Shown here piece after piece: positions 28,086 to 40,603 of a stretch of 64,000 nt of DNA (position 1 is the stretch's first letter; each line of letters opens with the position of its first letter). The stretch is from Escherichia coli (lineage in GTDB: Bacteria; Pseudomonadota; Gammaproteobacteria; Enterobacterales; Enterobacteriaceae). The translations under genes and the position numbers were made by a program. A model generated the notes under the pieces. The model ran no database searches. It saw only the letters and a program-made list of their open reading frames with translations, and was not told where the DNA came from. The stretch is taken from NCBI RefSeq assembly GCF_003019035.1, contig NZ_CP027447.1; one strand, 5' to 3'.

Positions 28086-30737
28086 TTAGCGACAGATTGC
28101 TGTCTGCTGGTTCAGTAAGGTACCAGGAGAAACTTCAGGAAGCTTGTACTCGACAATACAGTTTGAGTTTTTATCTTTGCCCCATGAAACCTGTAATTTC
28201 CCTGACTGTGGAAGTCCAGTCAGATAAACCTGACCGTTTTCCGCGACAATGCTGCCATTTTTATTCTCTCCATGTGTGACAATTGCACCGAATGGAACGC
28301 TCTTATTACCGTACTTCAACGTCATTAATACTTTCCCGCCGATTTGTGCATTAAATGTTGCTCTGGCAATAGCACCGTGAGTTGGGATGACAGTGACAAC
28401 GGTTTCATCCAGTTCAACATTATCTGCAAGGGAATTCGCGTTAAGAGCGACACGATTTTCTCTATATTCTGTCGCAAATGGTAATATGGCATAGCCACGC
28501 CAGTCGGTATGAATTCCGGTCTGGTTCTCTATTTTGACATTATCAGCGCCAGGAGCCTTAACCAGAACCATTGTGTCGCCCAGCGGCTGTCCAAAGGTGA
28601 TGCCATCAGCATGAGCAATAATCCCACCACTCATTCCGTAATAAATCTGGCTGCTGTCACCACTCCGACTGTAACCGACATTCGTATTACCGTAAGCTCC
28701 ACGATAATTAAGAGAACTGTAACCACTGGTGCCAGACGATGTATTACCCCCTTGGGTGTTACCGACCTGAACGCTATAATTCAGGTTATTATCCGGCAGC
28801 AGAGTGCCATAAACCCCTGATAGGTTGGTCATGCCGCCTTTCAAATCGTTTGACATACTGTAACTGGCGTTTGAATTACGAAATGCCGACTGACTGTCTG
28901 TACGCATCCAATGACTGAAGGGAACATTAAGCGTAAAAGCAAGTAAATGATCCCGATCGTTTTGCCATATATTATTGGAATAGCTGTAATTCAGCGAAGT
29001 CGTAATATCACCAAACGGCACATTTAATCCAAATGATATTTGCTGGTCGCTGCGTGACGTGTTCCAGTAACTTTGGCGACTGGCACTGAAAAATGTCGTA
29101 CCGTAATGTCCAAGCTGCTGAGAGATGCTTATTTGTTCCTGACCACGCTTACTGTAAAACAGATTAAAATAATCAATAAATAGTGTCTGCTCATTGCTGT
29201 CTCCGGTAGGAGGCTTGACGGTGTAACCACTCATTCGACTGTATGCACTGTCGGATAAGTTATAAAAACCTTGCGTAGAATAGCGATATCCTGCGACCTG
29301 GATATTGGTTCCCGTCTGGTAGAAGGATTTGCTGTAGACGGATTTAACCGATTGCCCGCTGTGACGGGTGCCATCTGCAAGTGTCGTATTGGCCTGCGTG
29401 ATATCGAAAGAAAAGGCACCAAAAAGTCCTAAATCTTTACCAATACCAAGGTTGAAGGCCTGATATTCTTCTGCAATTTGTATTCCGCCATAAGGTGTCC
29501 AGTTTCCTTTCAGACCATGCATCAAGCTTGCTTGTACGAACTTGGGGGAGCTTTGCAGGTTATTTCCACTACGATATTCCCCCATGGCAAGCGCATAACG
29601 CGTATATCCAGCACGTTGGAGAACCGGAACAGACGAATAAGGAACATATAATGTCTGAATACTGCCGTCTGCCTCTTTTATAGTTACTTGCAGATCACCA
29701 CCATTGGCCGCAGAGTTGATATCATCAATAGTAAAAGGGCCGGGTGGAACAGTAGTCTGATAAACATCGTATCCGTTCTGTTTTACACTCACTTGTGCGG
29801 TGCCACGGGCAATACCATGAATCACCGGAGCGAAACCATGTTGGCTATCGGGCAACATCGCTTCTGTTGAATTTATTTTTAGGCCACGAAAGTTCACACT
29901 ATCAAAAATATCGCCATCGGTATAACTATCACCTACCGTTAAGCGTGAGCGTAAGGGAATAATGTCACGTTCAGCCGACGTATTGATATGCTGCCATTTA
30001 TTGCTGTCAGATGAATTGCTACTCCCACTGTTATAACTCCACGTTGAGTTATCGCGCAGTCGCCAACTACCAATGTTGATGCCACTCTGTAAATTCAAAT
30101 ATGCATAGTTGGATTTTCCAGCATTATGGTTACTACGATTATTAATAGAATTACCATTAAAACTATAGTTTAGAAGCCCAGCATTTATTCCTTCTTCCCA
30201 CAGATCAGGAGAAACATAGCCGCGAGCCATTCTGCCAACATATATTTGCGGAACGGAGAGTGACAGATGTTGCTGACCAACATCAAACTCAGATGATGCG
30301 TCAGCCAAACGATCCTGGAGTGGTGTGCATGCGCTGTTGTCCGGCACATGTTTTTCTGCCGAATGTTCCTTGTTGTCTAATAATGCTGATTTTTTTATGC
30401 CAAGACTGACAAGAAGGTCTGTACTCAGGCATGGGATGAGATCTGCGTTATTATCATCTGCAATAAAAGTAATATCCCGACTAGTCATAAATTCGTCGTT
30501 CAAATAAATGTCGACCCGATATGTACCAGGTGGTGCCTCGCGCCCCTTAGTAAAGGCGGATAAATCGACAGATTCAGCAAGATCATTGCTTAAAAACCGT
30601 GGATTAAAATAATACTCTGCGTCAACGGGAAATACCGCAGTTGCTAAGCCAAGGGCAATGGTAAGCCGTGCAAAGCGAGGCAGTAGTAACACCTGATGCA
30701 TACGATATGCCTTAAATGCGGCACGAAAGGCTGTCAT
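28086..30737 (-). CDS. ydeT: Fimbrial usher, full length (FimD-like); ydeT is a fragment in K-12
   Basis: 883 aa, collinear with FimD (…YFNPRFL… to …CR); exact start uncertain (M1 or M13). Confidence 0.85.
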   Translation of the reverse strand: MTAFRAAFKAYRMHQVLLLPRFARLTIALGLATAVFPVDAEYYFNPRFLSNDLAESVDLSAFTKGREAPPGTYRVDIYLNDEFMTSRDITFIADDNNADLIPCLSTDLLVSLGIKKSALLDNKEHSAEKHVPDNSACTPLQDRLADASSEFDVGQQHLSLSVPQIYVGRMARGYVSPDLWEEGINAGLLNYSFNGNSINNRSNHNAGKSNYAYLNLQSGINIGSWRLRDNSTWSYNSGSSNSSDSNKWQHINTSAERDIIPLRSRLTVGDSYTDGDIFDSVNFRGLKINSTEAMLPDSQHGFAPVIHGIARGTAQVSVKQNGYDVYQTTVPPGPFTIDDINSAANGGDLQVTIKEADGSIQTLYVPYSSVPVLQRAGYTRYALAMGEYRSGNNLQSSPKFVQASLMHGLKGNWTPYGGIQIAEEYQAFNLGIGKDLGLFGAFSFDITQANTTLADGTRHSGQSVKSVYSKSFYQTGTNIQVAGYRYSTQGFYNLSDSAYSRMSGYTVKPPTGDSNEQTLFIDYFNLFYSKRGQEQISISQQLGHYGTTFFSASRQSYWNTSRSDQQISFGLNVPFGDITTSLNYSYSNNIWQNDRDHLLAFTLNVPFSHWMRTDSQSAFRNSNASYSMSNDLKGGMTNLSGVYGTLLPDNNLNYSVQVGNTQGGNTSSGTSGYSSLNYRGAYGNTNVGYSRSGDSSQIYYGMSGGIIAHADGITFGQPLGDTMVLVKAPGADNVKIENQTGIHTDWRGYAILPFATEYRENRVALNANSLADNVELDETVVTVIPTHGAIARATFNAQIGGKVLMTLKYGNKSVPFGAIVTHGENKNGSIVAENGQVYLTGLPQSGKLQVSWGKDKNSNCIVEYKLPEVSPGTLLNQQTAICR

Positions 30738-32848: not shown

Positions 32849-33103
32849 TTAAAGCTGACCGACAGACTTTCTTAACCTGGTAATATCTCTCTTAGGTGAC
32901 TCTCCAAACATCCGCGAATATTCCCGACAGAAATGGGATAAGCTTTCGTAACCGACAACATAGGCTGCAGTGGTGACATCGTAATGTTCATTCAGCATCA
33001 GTCGCCTGACTTCATTGAGGCGTAGCCATTTCTGATACCGGAGTGGACTCATTCCCGCAAGCTGTCTGAAGTGTTGATGGAAAGAGGGGGTGTTCATTTG
33101 CAC
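32849..33103 (-). pseudogene. yneL: AraC-family regulator remnant (HTH domain only)
   Basis: 84-aa ORF containing only an AraC-type HTH; no intact N-terminal domain upstream. Confidence 0.65.
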
Positions 33104-33383
33104 GCGGTTTGCCAGCCTGACTCTTCAACGCAGGGAAGATGCGGCAAACGGCAAACCTGCATACCAGCCAGCCTATATCCGGTATGCACAGGCCAATCAT
33201 GAAAGAGGAGAGGCTTTATGTTCTGGAACCCTGAAGTAATAACGACGACCGAAAAATCGCTTCGCATCACTCAAATTACATTTAACATAATATACATTAT
33301 GCGCACCAACATAAACCAAGGGAGAATCCAGTCGTTGGCGGTCATGATTGTCCTGCTCATTAACAACGGCCAAACCCCATATC

Positions 33384-34706
33384 TTACTTAATACCGTATT
33401 CTCGGCTTAACCGACGGTGCAACCTTAACACATTGGTTTCAACTGCCGTCACCACGTTCTCCGGAAAATCTGTCGGTAATGAAGTCTTCACATGATCCAG
33501 TGCTGCCGGAATCATTCTGGCAAAGTCACTCAGGATTTCATGCATCTGCACTTGCGGAAATTTCAGCACCTTTGCTGTCGCCAGAAAATGTCGCGGATAA
33601 ATTTTATCGATTGCCGTTTTTTTGCCTTTGGATGCGTTAAGCCCCATTGCCAGTTTGAGATCGCTGATGTGTATTCCTGCGCCACCCAATACCGGAAATG
33701 CTGAAATGATGTCGTAAAATGGCGTGAGTCGATAACTGCCGCCAGCCTGAATAAATACGGAGAAGTTTTTTGCATGGCCATCCGTTGCGCCAATCAACCA
33801 CTGGAAGACCTGGAATTTCATAAAATCATAACGATCTTTCAGCGCCTCGCTGGACCCCATCAAAAAAGCCATGATCCGCGCGATGCCTGGGCCTCCATCT
33901 GATTCATATTTCACCGATGAAGGTAAACCAAATGTCTGACACATATCCTCCTGTGGCAAGCGAAGTAAAACCGTTCGCTCAGTATTCCAACGCCTGTCAA
34001 AACGTTCGACCGCTAACGCGCGCACATTTCCCGCTTTAATGATTTCTGCGTCCGGCACATTCAACCCAAGTTCTTTCGCCAGCAGCAGACAGTAATACTC
34101 ATTATCAACGCTTTGGCTGAGATCGAGCGTCGCATTGGGCTGCCTGATTTCGCCAATCGGTAATTTAATGATGTGCGTCGTCGGCGTTATTCCTTTCGGA
34201 ATGCACCAGTCATTGCCTATTCTGAGCAGTGCTGTCTTCTCCTGTGCGCCAGCAACCGAGATGCGAAAGTCATTTTCTTCTCTAATCATGCCTAGCGGGA
34301 TATCTGCTTTATAAGCCGTTAATACTTCTTCAAGTCTGGCTTCAGTAAGCTTTTCCCATGCCATTATCGGACGCGTTACGGTTTCGTCTTCGGGTATTAA
34401 CGTCACAGCACCAACGCTGTCTCGCCCTATTTCTGACAATAAATCAAACGGTTGTCTGGATTTAGCATGATAACGTTTAACGATCCGGTCACGTACAATC
34501 GGGCTATCGGGTAGCAGGTTATCGAAGAAGTTAAATACAGCATCAGAGGTGATATTCCCCCTCTGCAATGGCAGCGAAAGTGATAACGGTCTGGCATAAC
34601 GGTTGGCTAACCACTCCGGTGCATACTTAAAGGTGTGCGCGCCGTTGGCTAACTTCGTTAACTCGCCTACCCGCTGGTTGTTCATCCAGGTGACAAGTTT
34701 AGGCAT
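33384..34706 (-). CDS. hipA: HipA serine/threonine kinase toxin
   Basis: 440 aa from MPKLVTWMNNQRVGEL; start overlaps the hipB stop by 1 nt. Confidence 0.95.
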   Translation of the reverse strand: MPKLVTWMNNQRVGELTKLANGAHTFKYAPEWLANRYARPLSLSLPLQRGNITSDAVFNFFDNLLPDSPIVRDRIVKRYHAKSRQPFDLLSEIGRDSVGAVTLIPEDETVTRPIMAWEKLTEARLEEVLTAYKADIPLGMIREENDFRISVAGAQEKTALLRIGNDWCIPKGITPTTHIIKLPIGEIRQPNATLDLSQSVDNEYYCLLLAKELGLNVPDAEIIKAGNVRALAVERFDRRWNTERTVLLRLPQEDMCQTFGLPSSVKYESDGGPGIARIMAFLMGSSEALKDRYDFMKFQVFQWLIGATDGHAKNFSVFIQAGGSYRLTPFYDIISAFPVLGGAGIHISDLKLAMGLNASKGKKTAIDKIYPRHFLATAKVLKFPQVQMHEILSDFARMIPAALDHVKTSLPTDFPENVVTAVETNVLRLHRRLSREYGIK

Positions 34707-34972
34707 TACCACTCCAGATCTTGCTGTTCTGTTGATTCTGGCGAGGCATTTTTCGTGTCGCATAGCGTCATTGAGAGTTCAAGCGACTGTAAAATCTTAA
34801 AAAATGTCGTGAGCGTGGTATTGTCAGGGTTGTTTTCGAAATTGGAAATTGTCGCCTGCTTAATACCGATTTTTTTCGCCAGCTCGCTCTGCGTCCAGCC
34901 ATTTTGCTGACGAACCAGTTTCATTGCATTCGCTAATTGCGTTGGGTTATAGATCTTCTGAAAGCTCATCAT
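34706..34972 (-). CDS. hipB: HipB antitoxin (Cro/C1-type HTH)
   Basis: 88 aa from MMSFQKIY. Confidence 0.93.
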   Translation of the reverse strand: MMSFQKIYNPTQLANAMKLVRQQNGWTQSELAKKIGIKQATISNFENNPDNTTLTTFFKILQSLELSMTLCDTKNASPESTEQQDLEW

Positions 34973-34983
34973 GTCATACGTCC

Positions 34984-35097
34984 ACAGCATATTTATCCGC
35001 TCAAGGGGATATTATCAGTTTTATCCTTTAGTGGGGATAAAGTCAATCAGGAAACACATCTTATCCGCTCTACGGGATAAACACTGTGATATCCGCG
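34984..35097 (-). promoter_or_regulatory. hipBA promoter with four HipB operators (TATCC-N8-GGATA)
   Basis: Perfect TATCC-N8-GGATA at 34984-35001, 35012-35029, 35052-35069 and 35080-35097. Confidence 0.9.
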
Positions 35098-35182
35098 ATC
35101 GCGGATAAAAAGGAGGATTTAAAAGTCGTTTGAAGTCGGCAATATTAAGCCGCATGCATCTTCGACATGCGGCTTATACGGT

Positions 35183-38100
35183 TTACCAGCTATATTTCAC
35201 ACCCAGCATGCCCTGAGTATCGCTATAGCCTTTATCACCTAGTTGCACACCGACATTCCCCCACAGGCTAAGGTTGTTATTTACTTTCGCCTCAACCCCG
35301 GTACGTACTTCACCGAGATTACGCGCACCATCACGGCTTACGTTTTGACCATTCATCTTCACGGCGTAGACTTTGCTGTTGTTGATCCAGTTCGCTTCAA
35401 TGTAAGGCTGGAACTCACGCTGTTTACCATTGTCACGCTGGTGATGACTGTTCTGGTAGGTTTTCACCCCAAGTCGTGTTTGCACGTTTCCGTCTCCTTC
35501 CGTTTCAATGCGTGTTCCGTCTTTCCGGGTATGGTCAGAATCTTTCACACCCATCCAGGTGATTTGTACCTGTGGCTGGACGTACCAGGTATTCAGCGTC
35601 CCTTCGCTGCCGCTAAATGTTCCCGCTTCAAAGGTATACCCACCCTCAACAGAGGCCGTCACACCGCGAGAATCATAGTCGTCAGCAGAACGGTTATCGG
35701 AACTGACGCTGTTATCAAACCAGTTATACAGCGCCCAGCTGTCAACATAAGCGCCGGTCTTATTCGCATCGTTCTGATACCAGGTCGCGTACAGTCCTGC
35801 GCTGTAACCGCTGATGCGCCCATCCGATTTATAACCCACATGATTACTCTGAGTATTACTGTGCTGATTGGCATAGCCTGCCATCACGCCGAGATGCCAG
35901 CGATCCTGCGCGTTGCTACTCCACTGCGCCAAATCGCCGCCTAGCTGCAATACATAGCGGTTAGCCTGAGTATTTAGCTGACCATCACCGGTCCTGAAAC
36001 GTTCGTGCCCTCCGACATGACGCATCCATATACTGGTTGCCGAATCCTGAACTCGCAGTGAATCTGTATACTGCGGCTCACCCAGACGGTCGTGTAAGCG
36101 ATGGCTAAACAGCGAGTTGGCTGCGGCAATGTTGCTGATATAGCTTCCGGCCTCCGGGCGATAAACTGATGGGCCTTCCGGATCCACAACAGGGGGATTA
36201 TTGATGGGATCGGGTGTATCCGCTGGCGTTACGCCGTCCCATTTACTGGTCAGATACCAGTTTTTCTCGTCATTCCCCTTCCCTTTAGCCAGCGTGTAGA
36301 CGTAAGCCCCAGCTTCGACAGTTCCGGTGGTCAGCGCGAAGTTACCTGCAGAATTACCGCCAACCTCAATGAGTTCAATACCGTTGACCGTTTGTGCACC
36401 GACGCCGCCAATGTTATTAACCCGAACGCGGGTATTGCCCTGCGTATCACCTTTTACGTTCATTTTATCCGTGGGGGAATTATCGCTACCCAGCGTCGCG
36501 TTGAACGTCATCAGGCCATTGTTTCCGGTATAGTTACCGTTAACGGTCAGTACATTCCCCGGTTTCCCCCCTTCGCTGTTCATTTGAACCGTGCCACCAT
36601 TCTCCAGGTTACCGCCGACAGTGGTTTTAGCGACACGCAGTGTCCCCCCAGGCATAACGTTCACATCACCTGCAGTGGTGACATTTCCCGACATCACACC
36701 GCTGTTATGGATATTAATGTGCTGACTTGCCATATTAATGGCAGAGTCGGAACCGAAAGCAATTTCACCACCCACGATATCCGTCGTACCCTGGTACGCC
36801 GCGGAATCGTTGTTAAGAGTCAGGATCCCGGACCCCAGTTTTGTCACACCGCCGCTACCGGTGATACTGTGCGTCATCGCCCAGCTACGCTCAGTGGAGA
36901 TGGTGAGCAGGCCATTATTGATAACGGAAGCATCACCCAGGTTTTTCTGCTCGTTGACGCTGAGCGCGCTGCCTGTATCAATGTTGAATTGCCCCACAAA
37001 GCGGCTATTATCGCCATCCAGCTCTACGTCTGTCCTGGCGGTTGCGCTCACGATACCCTTCCCGCTTATGCTATTACGCAGTTCGCCGGTCACGTTTTTT
37101 AGCGTTAACAGACCGTCATTGGCAATATTTCCTCTGCCTAACCCCTGCGTATTATCGAGGCTGACTTCCGCATTTGGGCTAACGCTGGTTAACGCATTGT
37201 AGCGTGCATTAAGCCCCTCGATAGCCAGCGTTCCCCCTGTAACATTCAGGTTTCCGCCACCTGTCAGTTCACCCTGACTGATCCCACCTTTATTCACCGT
37301 CAGCGACCCTTCTTTGAACAAAACAGTCGAACCCATCTGCCCGGTGAATGTCTCTACCGTCTGCGTCGATCCATTAAGATCGACGATGGCCGCGTTGCTG
37401 ATGTTCAGTTCCCGGGTGTTGCCCAGCGCGCCATCCGCATCGGTACGTAATGTCCCCATCTGAACGTAGGTTGCCCCCTGATAGTCGTTCTGACCGTTGG
37501 AAAGCGAAACCTGTCGCACCGTATTGATTGCCAGATCCCCTTCACCACCGATTTTTGCCGACATATCGGCCGTTGCGCCATAGGCTCCGCCATGTTCGGC
37601 TAATGTCAGCTTTTGCCCACCATGGATGTTCAGCGCTTTCAGCCCATAGTTAACGTACAAACCATCACCTGGTGCGGTCGTGAGGCGGAATCCATAATCA
37701 CCCTCGGCGACCACCGTTCCGTTTTGCGCAATGTGTAACGTTTTGTCCGCTTCCACCTCGTCGCCCTGTAAATCACGTAACGTTAATGAGCCACCCGACC
37801 CAATAACCGTTTGCGCCTTCACCAGTTGAACGCCGACATGGTTATCATCGTGTTCCAGCAAATTGAGCGTCGTCAGAGGGTTATTCGCCATGGGATCATT
37901 CCACGGTTTAGGCACGTCGATAAGCACGTCGCCCGTCCCGTTTACCTGATAGTTACGGCCTTTCCAGGTGTAGTCACCCGCGCCGACAGCCAGCGTATCG
38001 ACGCTGATATATCCCTCCGCAAGCGTCGCAGCAGGTATATCCGTATCGAAAGTGAGCGTACCGCCATTCATGGCTAGTCCACCAATGGATTGCTCTCCCA

Positions 38101-40603
38101 CGTTTACCGATGTGGTATTTTCACTGTCAGACTGAAGCATCGCGTGAGTAAGCGCAGCGGTGTTGTCGCGTTCCAGTGTGAAGGTACTGTCTTTCAGTTG
38201 GACAACACCGGCGAATTCAGTTCCTGTTGCATGGGTAAAGCCAAACATTTTGTCGGAGGATGACAGCTGCACTCGCATCAAGCCATCGCCTTTGAGCGCA
38301 TTGGTCAGCGTGTAATCTCCTGCGCTGTTCGTTGATGCGAGAATGTCGAGCGTACCGGGGCTTGCAATGGTGACTTCACTCGAACCCATGCCCGTTACCC
38401 CATCTGCCGTATGTGACGCAATGGTCAGGAGGCCGTCATTGACCAGCGTTTTACCGCTATAAGTATTCCCTGCATTGAACACCGTATGGCCTGCATCATG
38501 TATCACTTTTCCGTCTTTATCGTCACCCGTAATCAGCATATCGACCTGGTAGCCGGCATCACTGTTATTGGTATGATTAAAGACAAAAACACCTTCGCCA
38601 GAACCAAACTCTACTTTCGTCGCGTTGGCGATAAACCCGGCATCTGCCGCCGCCTCACCGTGAGCAGCACCAATGTTTAGCGTTCCTACAGCAGGTTCAA
38701 AAAGACCTAAGTAAACTTCGCCACCTTCGACATTCAGCGTGCCGTTATTCGTCAGGGTTAACGTACCCGTACCAGACGTCCCTACATTCATATTGAATGT
38801 TTCAAGAAGAGAGTTCTGCCCATCCACCCGCACGTCGCCCTTACTTTTGTCATTCAGAGCTATCTGTGTATCACGCGCTTTAACTATACCTCCGGTGGTA
38901 ATATTCAGTTCACCCGTACCTAATACACCGACCTGTAGCAATTGGGCGTTAGTAGATGACGTTTTTAAATTCCAGAGACTATCCGTTGAAATATTAACTA
39001 TCCCCTTACCGGAGGCATTTCCTCCGATAAATCCATAGCCCGTTGAATTAAGGGTGGCACCATTACTGACATTTACGATGCCGCTACCAAAATTACCGAC
39101 ATTGATACCTACAGTATCGAACGATGATGTCGCATCCATCAGGTTCAGTGTGCCGATACCGCTTGCTTTATCGCCCAAAAAAGTAATATTTTGCGATACG
39201 AACTTACCGCCATCGCTGATATTGAGGTTTCCGACGCCCGCAACACCAATGGTGGTGTAGACATTCTTATTGACCTCCCATATCCCCCCCGTGGTGATGC
39301 TAACCTTCCCGACGCCGGTTTCTCCATAACCGAGTGAACTTCCTCCGTTGCTGACAACAAGCCCCTCATTACTGATATTCATTTCGCCGTGGCCGTCATA
39401 ACCAAGATTAGTTCCGAGATTAGTGATAACGGAGTTCTTATCCTTAACAGTAATGTTGCCTGTGCCTGTTTCTTTCATCCCCGCAGTGATAATTCCCGAA
39501 TCTACTTTGCCTTCACTAGAGACATTAAGTTCACCGTCGCCAGCATCACCGATATAGATATAGCGGAAAGCTTCGCCCGTTCCGAGGAAATTCCAATGCC
39601 CTTTATCGGTCACGTTGACGACACCGTGGGAACCGTCCTGAACGCCCACCAATGAATATTCTTTGTTATTAATCAGTCCATTATTGGAAATATTGACTTT
39701 GCCATTACCGAAATATCCATTATAGAGTCTGCGTACCGTGATGACAGAGTCTTGATCCTGCACATTCAGGGTTCCGATACCGGTGGCATTGCCTCCGATA
39801 ATCGTATTTTCAGCCGTAATTAGCCCACCCTCGCGAATAGTCGCTTCCCCAGTTCCTTGATTACCAATTTGAAATTCAATTGAGGAATCGTTATTTTTTA
39901 TTAGCCACTCACCGCCCTTTTCAACGACAACCTTACCATTACTGTTCGCTTGATATCCTACAGTGGCGACTATTGAACTCGTGACGTAACCCTTATCCGT
40001 AATATTTAATGAGCCCGTACCGTAACTCCCTATTTCGAATAATTCGGTCGTCAGAACCGAGTCCTCTCCCTCAACATTAACCGTCCCGACGCCTCCTGTC
40101 GAAGAACCTATCCTTAAATATCCTCCGTCAACGTGACCCTTCTGTTTAATATTCAGCGTCCCCGTTCCGGATTGACCCACATTTAAAGGCCTTGCATTAT
40201 TTCCGCTATCATACAATCGCCAGGTCCCACCCAAAACATTAACGGTGCCCTCCGAGTCCTCATTAGCGCCAATGACGCTGGTAGTAATAGTGGTTAAGGA
40301 AGCATTACCGCCAGCCAAAATATTAAGCACTCCAGTGCCATACCAGCCAACCAGGTAGGCATCATAAGCAACATCAGTATCAATATTGGTAATCTGACCA
40401 TTATCAACTTCCAGACTCGCACCAGACGCTGAACCGCTTAGTGCCAGCAAAACACCCAGCGTCAATCTACTGAGTTTCGTTGTCAGTCCAGAGGATTTAC
40501 GCAAATTAACCGTCGATGTTTTACCTACCCTGCGAGTTAATTCAGAGCAGGCCTGAAATACCTGTAGAGTGCAATTCCATATCACGCGATAGATTCTATT
40601 CAT
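35183..40603 (-). CDS. yneO: AIDA-type autotransporter adhesin, intact 1806 aa (yneO/ydeK pseudogene locus in K-12)
   Basis: Extended signal peptide MNRIYRVIWN…; repetitive glycine-rich passenger; C-terminal beta-domain ending …GVKYSW. Confidence 0.85.
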   Translation of the reverse strand: MNRIYRVIWNCTLQVFQACSELTRRVGKTSTVNLRKSSGLTTKLSRLTLGVLLALSGSASGASLEVDNGQITNIDTDVAYDAYLVGWYGTGVLNILAGGNASLTTITTSVIGANEDSEGTVNVLGGTWRLYDSGNNARPLNVGQSGTGTLNIKQKGHVDGGYLRIGSSTGGVGTVNVEGEDSVLTTELFEIGSYGTGSLNITDKGYVTSSIVATVGYQANSNGKVVVEKGGEWLIKNNDSSIEFQIGNQGTGEATIREGGLITAENTIIGGNATGIGTLNVQDQDSVITVRRLYNGYFGNGKVNISNNGLINNKEYSLVGVQDGSHGVVNVTDKGHWNFLGTGEAFRYIYIGDAGDGELNVSSEGKVDSGIITAGMKETGTGNITVKDKNSVITNLGTNLGYDGHGEMNISNEGLVVSNGGSSLGYGETGVGKVSITTGGIWEVNKNVYTTIGVAGVGNLNISDGGKFVSQNITFLGDKASGIGTLNLMDATSSFDTVGINVGNFGSGIVNVSNGATLNSTGYGFIGGNASGKGIVNISTDSLWNLKTSSTNAQLLQVGVLGTGELNITTGGIVKARDTQIALNDKSKGDVRVDGQNSLLETFNMNVGTSGTGTLTLTNNGTLNVEGGEVYLGLFEPAVGTLNIGAAHGEAAADAGFIANATKVEFGSGEGVFVFNHTNNSDAGYQVDMLITGDDKDGKVIHDAGHTVFNAGNTYSGKTLVNDGLLTIASHTADGVTGMGSSEVTIASPGTLDILASTNSAGDYTLTNALKGDGLMRVQLSSSDKMFGFTHATGTEFAGVVQLKDSTFTLERDNTAALTHAMLQSDSENTTSVNVGEQSIGGLAMNGGTLTFDTDIPAATLAEGYISVDTLAVGAGDYTWKGRNYQVNGTGDVLIDVPKPWNDPMANNPLTTLNLLEHDDNHVGVQLVKAQTVIGSGGSLTLRDLQGDEVEADKTLHIAQNGTVVAEGDYGFRLTTAPGDGLYVNYGLKALNIHGGQKLTLAEHGGAYGATADMSAKIGGEGDLAINTVRQVSLSNGQNDYQGATYVQMGTLRTDADGALGNTRELNISNAAIVDLNGSTQTVETFTGQMGSTVLFKEGSLTVNKGGISQGELTGGGNLNVTGGTLAIEGLNARYNALTSVSPNAEVSLDNTQGLGRGNIANDGLLTLKNVTGELRNSISGKGIVSATARTDVELDGDNSRFVGQFNIDTGSALSVNEQKNLGDASVINNGLLTISTERSWAMTHSITGSGGVTKLGSGILTLNNDSAAYQGTTDIVGGEIAFGSDSAINMASQHINIHNSGVMSGNVTTAGDVNVMPGGTLRVAKTTVGGNLENGGTVQMNSEGGKPGNVLTVNGNYTGNNGLMTFNATLGSDNSPTDKMNVKGDTQGNTRVRVNNIGGVGAQTVNGIELIEVGGNSAGNFALTTGTVEAGAYVYTLAKGKGNDEKNWYLTSKWDGVTPADTPDPINNPPVVDPEGPSVYRPEAGSYISNIAAANSLFSHRLHDRLGEPQYTDSLRVQDSATSIWMRHVGGHERFRTGDGQLNTQANRYVLQLGGDLAQWSSNAQDRWHLGVMAGYANQHSNTQSNHVGYKSDGRISGYSAGLYATWYQNDANKTGAYVDSWALYNWFDNSVSSDNRSADDYDSRGVTASVEGGYTFEAGTFSGSEGTLNTWYVQPQVQITWMGVKDSDHTRKDGTRIETEGDGNVQTRLGVKTYQNSHHQRDNGKQREFQPYIEANWINNSKVYAVKMNGQNVSRDGARNLGEVRTGVEAKVNNNLSLWGNVGVQLGDKGYSDTQGMLGVKYSW

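Follow-up and report, generated by a model that had tools for sequence, protein, structure and literature searches.

The hipB and hipA genes lie next to each other on the minus strand of the window, which is the whole 64-kb stretch of Escherichia coli chromosomal DNA that was analysed, so that upstream of these genes means higher coordinates. The hipB coding sequence (34706..34972, -) encodes an antitoxin and repressor of 88 aa with an Xre/Cro-type helix-turn-helix, and downstream of it hipA (33384..34706, -) encodes a Ser/Thr kinase toxin of 440 aa. As the first-pass annotation had stated, the two genes overlap by 1 nt; at the junction ...GAG TGG TAATG CCT..., in which TAATG occupies 34708-34704, the base 34706 is common to the TAA stop of hipB and the ATG start of hipA. 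The same overlap is found in K-12 and is the published arrangement for E. coli (PMC4150777). Further downstream of hipA, an ORF of 84 aa (32849-33103, -) corresponds to the C-terminal portion of an AraC-type HTH regulator; its position is that of yneL in K-12, and in E. coli SCU-301 it is annotated as an incomplete pseudogene.

The gene names given in the first-pass annotation were confirmed by model scores, structures and comparison with other strains. HipB scored 183.6 bits on the NCBIfam HipB equivalog NF007271 (cutoff 79), covering residues 1-88 of 88, and also matched Pfam HTH_3, and in HipA the Pfam domains Couple_hipA and HipA_C were detected. Both proteins match crystallised HipA-HipB and HipA-HipB-DNA entries of the PDB (2wiu, 3dnv, 3hzi, 4yg7 and others); those matched by HipB include 3dnv, 2wiu and 4yg7, and those matched by HipA have E values of about 1e-293. 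E. coli SCU-301, which is 100% identical over a 2-kb query, carries hipB and hipA with the same CDS limits in its RefSeq annotation. With an alternative start at the in-frame ATG at 34988-34990, 18 nt 5' of the one annotated for hipB, the protein would be longer by MLWTYD, but the NCBIfam model and the crystallised proteins speak for the annotated start (MMSFQ).

In comparison to K-12 MG1655, HipB is 97% identical, with three changes (S9N, A73T and N85D) which all fall outside the helix-turn-helix, and the C-terminal W88 is kept. HipA is 98% identical, and none of its 10 substitutions affects G22, P86, S150, K181, D291, D309 or D332. Among these, we take S150, K181, D309 and D332 to be the residues of HipA catalysis and autophosphorylation. 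G22 and D291 are the sites altered in hipA7 (PMC3376134); both are wild type here, and the allele is not hipA7.

Directly upstream of hipB, an exact motif search located four TATCC-N8-GGATA sites within 114 bp, as the first-pass annotation had reported. The distal operator TATCCGCGATCGCGGATA (35090..35107, -) is a full 18-bp palindrome, whereas the other three are palindromic just in their 5-bp half-sites. These are the second operator TATCCCGTAGAGCGGATA, given on the hipB-sense strand (35062..35079, -), the third operator TATCCCCACTAAAGGATA (35022..35039, -) and the proximal, or fourth, operator TATCCCCTTGAGCGGATA (34994..35011, -), which starts 39 nt from the hipB ATG. The operators are named by position and not by number, as the 'O1O2' oligonucleotide of Hansen et al. 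2012 corresponds to the hipB-proximal pair (PMC3376134). The array spans 34994-35107, and the interval 34984-35097 given for it in the first-pass annotation is exactly 10 nt too low at both ends, so that it takes in just 8 of the 18 nt of the distal operator. Moreover, the spacing is not regular as had been described, since the start-to-start steps are 28, 40 and 28 bp (gaps of 10, 22 and 10 bp), that is, two tight pairs joined by a longer linker. A GATC sequence, the target of Dam methylation, lies at the dyad centre of the distal operator (35097-35100).

The question whether such sites could arise by chance, or persist as a relic with no present regulatory role, was addressed by counting matches to TATCCNNNNNNNNGGATA over the window and in 100 dinucleotide-preserving shuffles of it. 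The chance expectation was 0.07 sites per 64-kb window, and at least five sites were seen in 0 of the 100 shuffles, whereas the window itself has five, four clustered next to hipB and one distant. The distant match shows that the motif can occur outside hip control regions. It is the palindrome TATCCTGCGACCTGGATA at 29287-29304, inside an intact fimbrial usher gene (28086..30737, -) and at a distance of 5.7 kb from hipB. Thousands of genomes conserve it as coding sequence, and in K-12 it is still present at 1590054, immediately beyond the limits annotated for the truncated ydeT. This fifth palindrome was considered as an additional HipB target and set aside as a probable chance occurrence (p about 0.07), given its place in the usher coding sequence and its conservation as such.

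The K-12 hipBA promoter is said to have been mapped and its four operators described by Black et al. 1994 and Schumacher et al. 2009 and 2015, and a HipB footprint covering all four sites has reportedly been published for the K-12 allele. The first-pass annotation had held that the array matches the known hipBA architecture and had proposed a direct comparison with the K-12 promoter. In an alignment of the two upstream regions (b1508/b1507 in K-12), all four operators fall at homologous positions. The motif, the number of sites and their arrangement thus agree with what had been claimed, including the 28-bp step inside each pair and the 39 nt between the proximal operator and the ATG, whereas the region as a whole is not identical to that of K-12. 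The two distal operators have the same sequence in both, and the two proximal ones each differ by one base within N8 (TATCCTCAC... in the third operator of K-12 and CTTAAGC in the proximal one). The step between the pairs is 39 bp in K-12 (28/39/28) and 40 bp in the window, which has an extra T after the conserved TTGAC; the T run that joins TTGAC to the third operator (35039-35041) reads TTT in the window and TT in K-12. Further, the hexamer abutting the proximal operator is TATAAT in K-12 and GATAAT in the window. The gaps of 10/21/10 published for E. coli (Wen et al. 2014, PMC4150777) agree with the K-12 sequence. The 10/22/10 of the window differs from them as a natural allele and gives no reason to deny these sites membership in a HipB operator array.

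Upstream of the distal operator, K-12 is also longer by 13 bp, GCGCATCAACGCC. This segment, whose place in the window is 35117-35119, is present in K-12 and in UTME-12 and is absent from the window and from most of the sampled strains. The only match to the relaxed IHF-like core ATCAANNNNTTR was found within these extra 13 bp of K-12, and the strict IHF consensus WATCAANNNNTTR was absent from every haplotype examined, K-12 included.

More distant hipBA loci were collected by tblastn of a plasmid collection with HipB. Loci of Klebsiella pneumoniae, Enterobacter mori and Pantoea sp. At-9b, in which HipB is 55-59% identical, have TATCC-N8-GGATA sites at the same 28-bp step as within the pairs of the window, numbering three in Klebsiella (one of them imperfect), two in Enterobacter and four in Pantoea (again with one imperfect). 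In all three genera the sequence TTGAC lies 7 nt before one operator, as in the window, whereas in K-12 this offset is 6. That operator would occupy the spacer of the putative promoter, and another lies 28 bp further downstream, at a distance of about 40-64 nt from the hipB start given in the annotation. Unlike the window, these loci are without a long linker, and in Pantoea all sites are 28 bp apart. Proteus and Aeromonas homologues, with 38-44% HipB identity, were found to lack the E. coli motif, the best sites having two mismatches, and in Proteus a different repeated sequence lies upstream. The HipAB system of Shewanella oneidensis also has four palindromic operators upstream of hipBA which are bound by HipB with HipA, but their motif is GTGTA-N6-TACAC and every gap measures 34 bp; one of the operators is situated within hipB, and 3 bp separate the genes in place of the overlap seen in E. 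coli (PMC4150777).

Neither in the window nor in K-12 did a consensus sigma-70 scan identify a promoter, and the promoter hexamers were therefore assigned from conservation across genera. The putative -35 element is TTGACT (35041..35046, -), which lies within the array, where a 22-bp linker joins the two pairs, and whose TTGAC keeps its offset across genera. The putative -10 element is TAAAAC (35018..35023, -), which begins 17 nt after TTGACT, takes its first two bases from the end of the third operator and is without the usual final T of a -10. At the same offset TAAAAC is found in Klebsiella, TAAACA in Enterobacter and TAAATT in Pantoea, so that in four genera the third operator stands between a conserved TTGAC and a TAAAnn that comes 17 nt further on. 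An alternative -10 would be the hexamer GATAAT (35016..35011, -; TATAAT in K-12), which abuts the fourth operator. No mapped hipB transcription start was found in the accessible literature. We infer from this layout that the third operator fills the spacer between -35 and -10 and that the proximal operator probably covers the start site; the proximal operators would lie over the core promoter with either choice of -10. On this assignment the promoter spacer would be 17 nt in the window and 16 nt in K-12, where the linker is 21 bp.

Taken with the intact genes, these features argue that this is almost certainly the region through which the chromosomal hipBA type II toxin-antitoxin operon of E. 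coli natively regulates itself, the proximal operators probably overlapping the core promoter. In K-12, hipBA is repressed by HipB, which binds cooperatively to its four TATCCN8GGATA operators, and HipA serves as co-repressor (PMC3920265, PMC3376134). HipB bends the operator by about 70 degrees (PMC3920265), its Kd for operator-pair DNA is about 0.6 nM, and Lon degrades free HipB but not HipB which is bound to DNA or to HipA (PMC3376134). If the binding, cooperativity, co-repression and Lon degradation described for K-12 are carried over to the present locus, HipB dimers, with their Cro/Xre helix-turn-helix, would bind cooperatively to each of the four 18-bp operators, and HipA would join HipB as co-repressor and stay inactive. 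One of the proximal operators would be located in the spacer between TTGACT and the -10 and the other over the transcription start; as they would overlap the core promoter, occupancy of this pair would keep RNA polymerase out, with the distal pair contributing cooperativity. Degradation of free HipB by Lon would then derepress the operon. The operator array itself is already known, and the region is the ordinary control region of the E. coli persistence operon.

The variation of the region within the species was studied at two levels. With the 163-bp intergenic sequence as query, 48 records were at least 99% identical, 1,672 were at 95-99% and 3,141 at 90-95%, and the hipBA intergenic region is thus polymorphic in E. 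coli. A set of 12 haplotypes was then compared column by column, consisting of the window, K-12 and the hipBA-bearing copies among 10 chromosomal representatives of identity classes and one E. coli plasmid copy. Four perfect operators are retained in all 12, as is the GATC at the centre of the distal one. No half-site column varies (0 of 40), in comparison to 6 of 32 N8 columns and 5 of 41 linker columns, the linker bearing the indel being excluded from the count; the difference between half-sites and the rest (Fisher's exact p = 0.0075) is indicative only, as the haplotypes are related and non-randomly sampled. Because the half-sites are invariant where the N8 cores and linkers vary, and because, more tellingly, both the motif and the 28-bp step are kept in genera with only 55-59% HipB identity, present function of the half-sites is favoured. 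Together with the shuffle statistics, this conservation excludes a chance origin of the four sites, and the probability that they are an accident or a relic is practically negligible.

Among the 12 haplotypes the step between the pairs is 40 bp in nine and 39 bp in three, and TATAAT occurs in K-12 only. For a wider count of the alleles, each variant was placed at the centre of a 45-nt query, which forces the 28-nt megablast seed to cross it. The 40-bp junction was found in about 2,737 complete genomes, counted as 2,434 plus another 303 that share the haplotype of the window, and the 39-bp junction of the K-12 type in 2,059, the collection being a biased sample. GATAAT was found in 3,108 genomes and TATAAT in 1,680. 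Complete E. coli genomes are hence split roughly 57/43 by the 1-bp indel in the T run (TTT as in the window, TT as in K-12) and 65/35 by the T/G change in the hexamer. Both alleles are clearly common, and the window has the majority form at both variants.

These counts bear on the possibility that the operators are intact while the module is non-functional in this strain or regulated in a manner materially unlike K-12. Possible causes can be named: the linker is 1 bp longer, GATAAT stands in place of TATAAT, the 13-bp segment of K-12 with the only IHF-like core is missing, and the two proteins together carry 13 amino acid substitutions. The 2-kb hipBA allele (33300-35300) is also rare, with identity of at least 99% in only 6 of 5,419 matching records, most of which are about 96% identical; its best match is SCU-301, which came from a human rectal swab in California. 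On the other hand, both ORFs are intact, and no substitution falls in the helix-turn-helix of HipB or on a known catalytic or hipA7 residue of HipA. In E. coli the 40-bp step and GATAAT each outnumber the alternative form, and the offset that goes with the 40-bp step is the one found in other genera. A module that is silent or differently controlled is accordingly considered improbable, although less so than a chance or relic array.

The gene immediately upstream offers another explanation. An intact autotransporter gene of the ECSE_1600 family (1,806 aa; 35183-40603, -) is read in the same direction as hipBA, and the array starts 75 nt past its stop codon (35183), so that the sites might mainly serve this neighbour, for example with bound protein as a roadblock against read-through into hipBA. 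Between the stop codon and the array lies a hairpin (35146-35176, -) with a 12-bp stem and a 7-nt loop, which begins 7 nt after the stop codon. It was not called in the terminator scan, which found none in the window or in K-12, since no U-tract follows it. The 95-nt stretch containing the hairpin folds at -24.1 kcal/mol, and its stem is conserved among strains whereas the loop varies. The conserved TTGAC embedded in the array speaks against this reading. Moreover, the operators are kept in ST131-type strains, on the plasmid and in the loci of Klebsiella, Enterobacter and Pantoea, all of which have other upstream neighbours, and because the array is retained there, a roadblock role is very unlikely, falling between the relic and the silent module in probability. 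Autoregulation of hipBA remains the preferred role of the four sites. The autotransporter gene itself is a pseudogene in K-12 (yneO) and is frameshifted or shortened in several other strains.

Our study reflects that K-12 is not representative of the species at the hipBA promoter, since the indel in the T run and the T/G change in the -10-like hexamer each divide complete E. coli genomes into two large groups. The K-12 spacing looks derived, by a 1-bp deletion between TTGAC and the promoter operator, because the hipBA loci of Klebsiella, Enterobacter and Pantoea have the offset between TTGAC and operator that is seen in the window; the alleles of the window would then be apparently ancestral, and the deletion would be common to about 43% of complete E. 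coli genomes. Lying in a T run, this indel may recur. No prior description of polymorphism in the hipBA promoter was found in the accessible literature, a limited library, so that this is not proof of novelty. The control region is dimorphic in E. coli; the form carried by K-12 and by the oligonucleotide of Hansen 2012 (21-bp linker, 16-nt putative spacer and TATAAT) appears to be the derived and less common one, and most strains, that of the window among them, have a 22-bp linker, a 17-nt putative spacer and GATAAT. One extra base would change both the spacer between -35 and -10 and the rotational phasing between the pairs (by about 34 degrees). It may be speculated, as a tentative proposal which we hold to be less probable than its negation, that the two forms for this reason show unequal basal hipBA expression or unequal higher-order HipA-HipB-DNA assembly, and hence unequal persister frequencies. 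Studies which link noise in hipBA expression to persister frequency in clinical isolates should take the promoter alleles into account. The operator region as a whole has no match in 567 of 5,426 complete genomes and is present in roughly 4,860. In E. coli KFu014 (329-400), where hipBA is missing, the similarity ends a few bases after the second operator and the distal pair alone remains.
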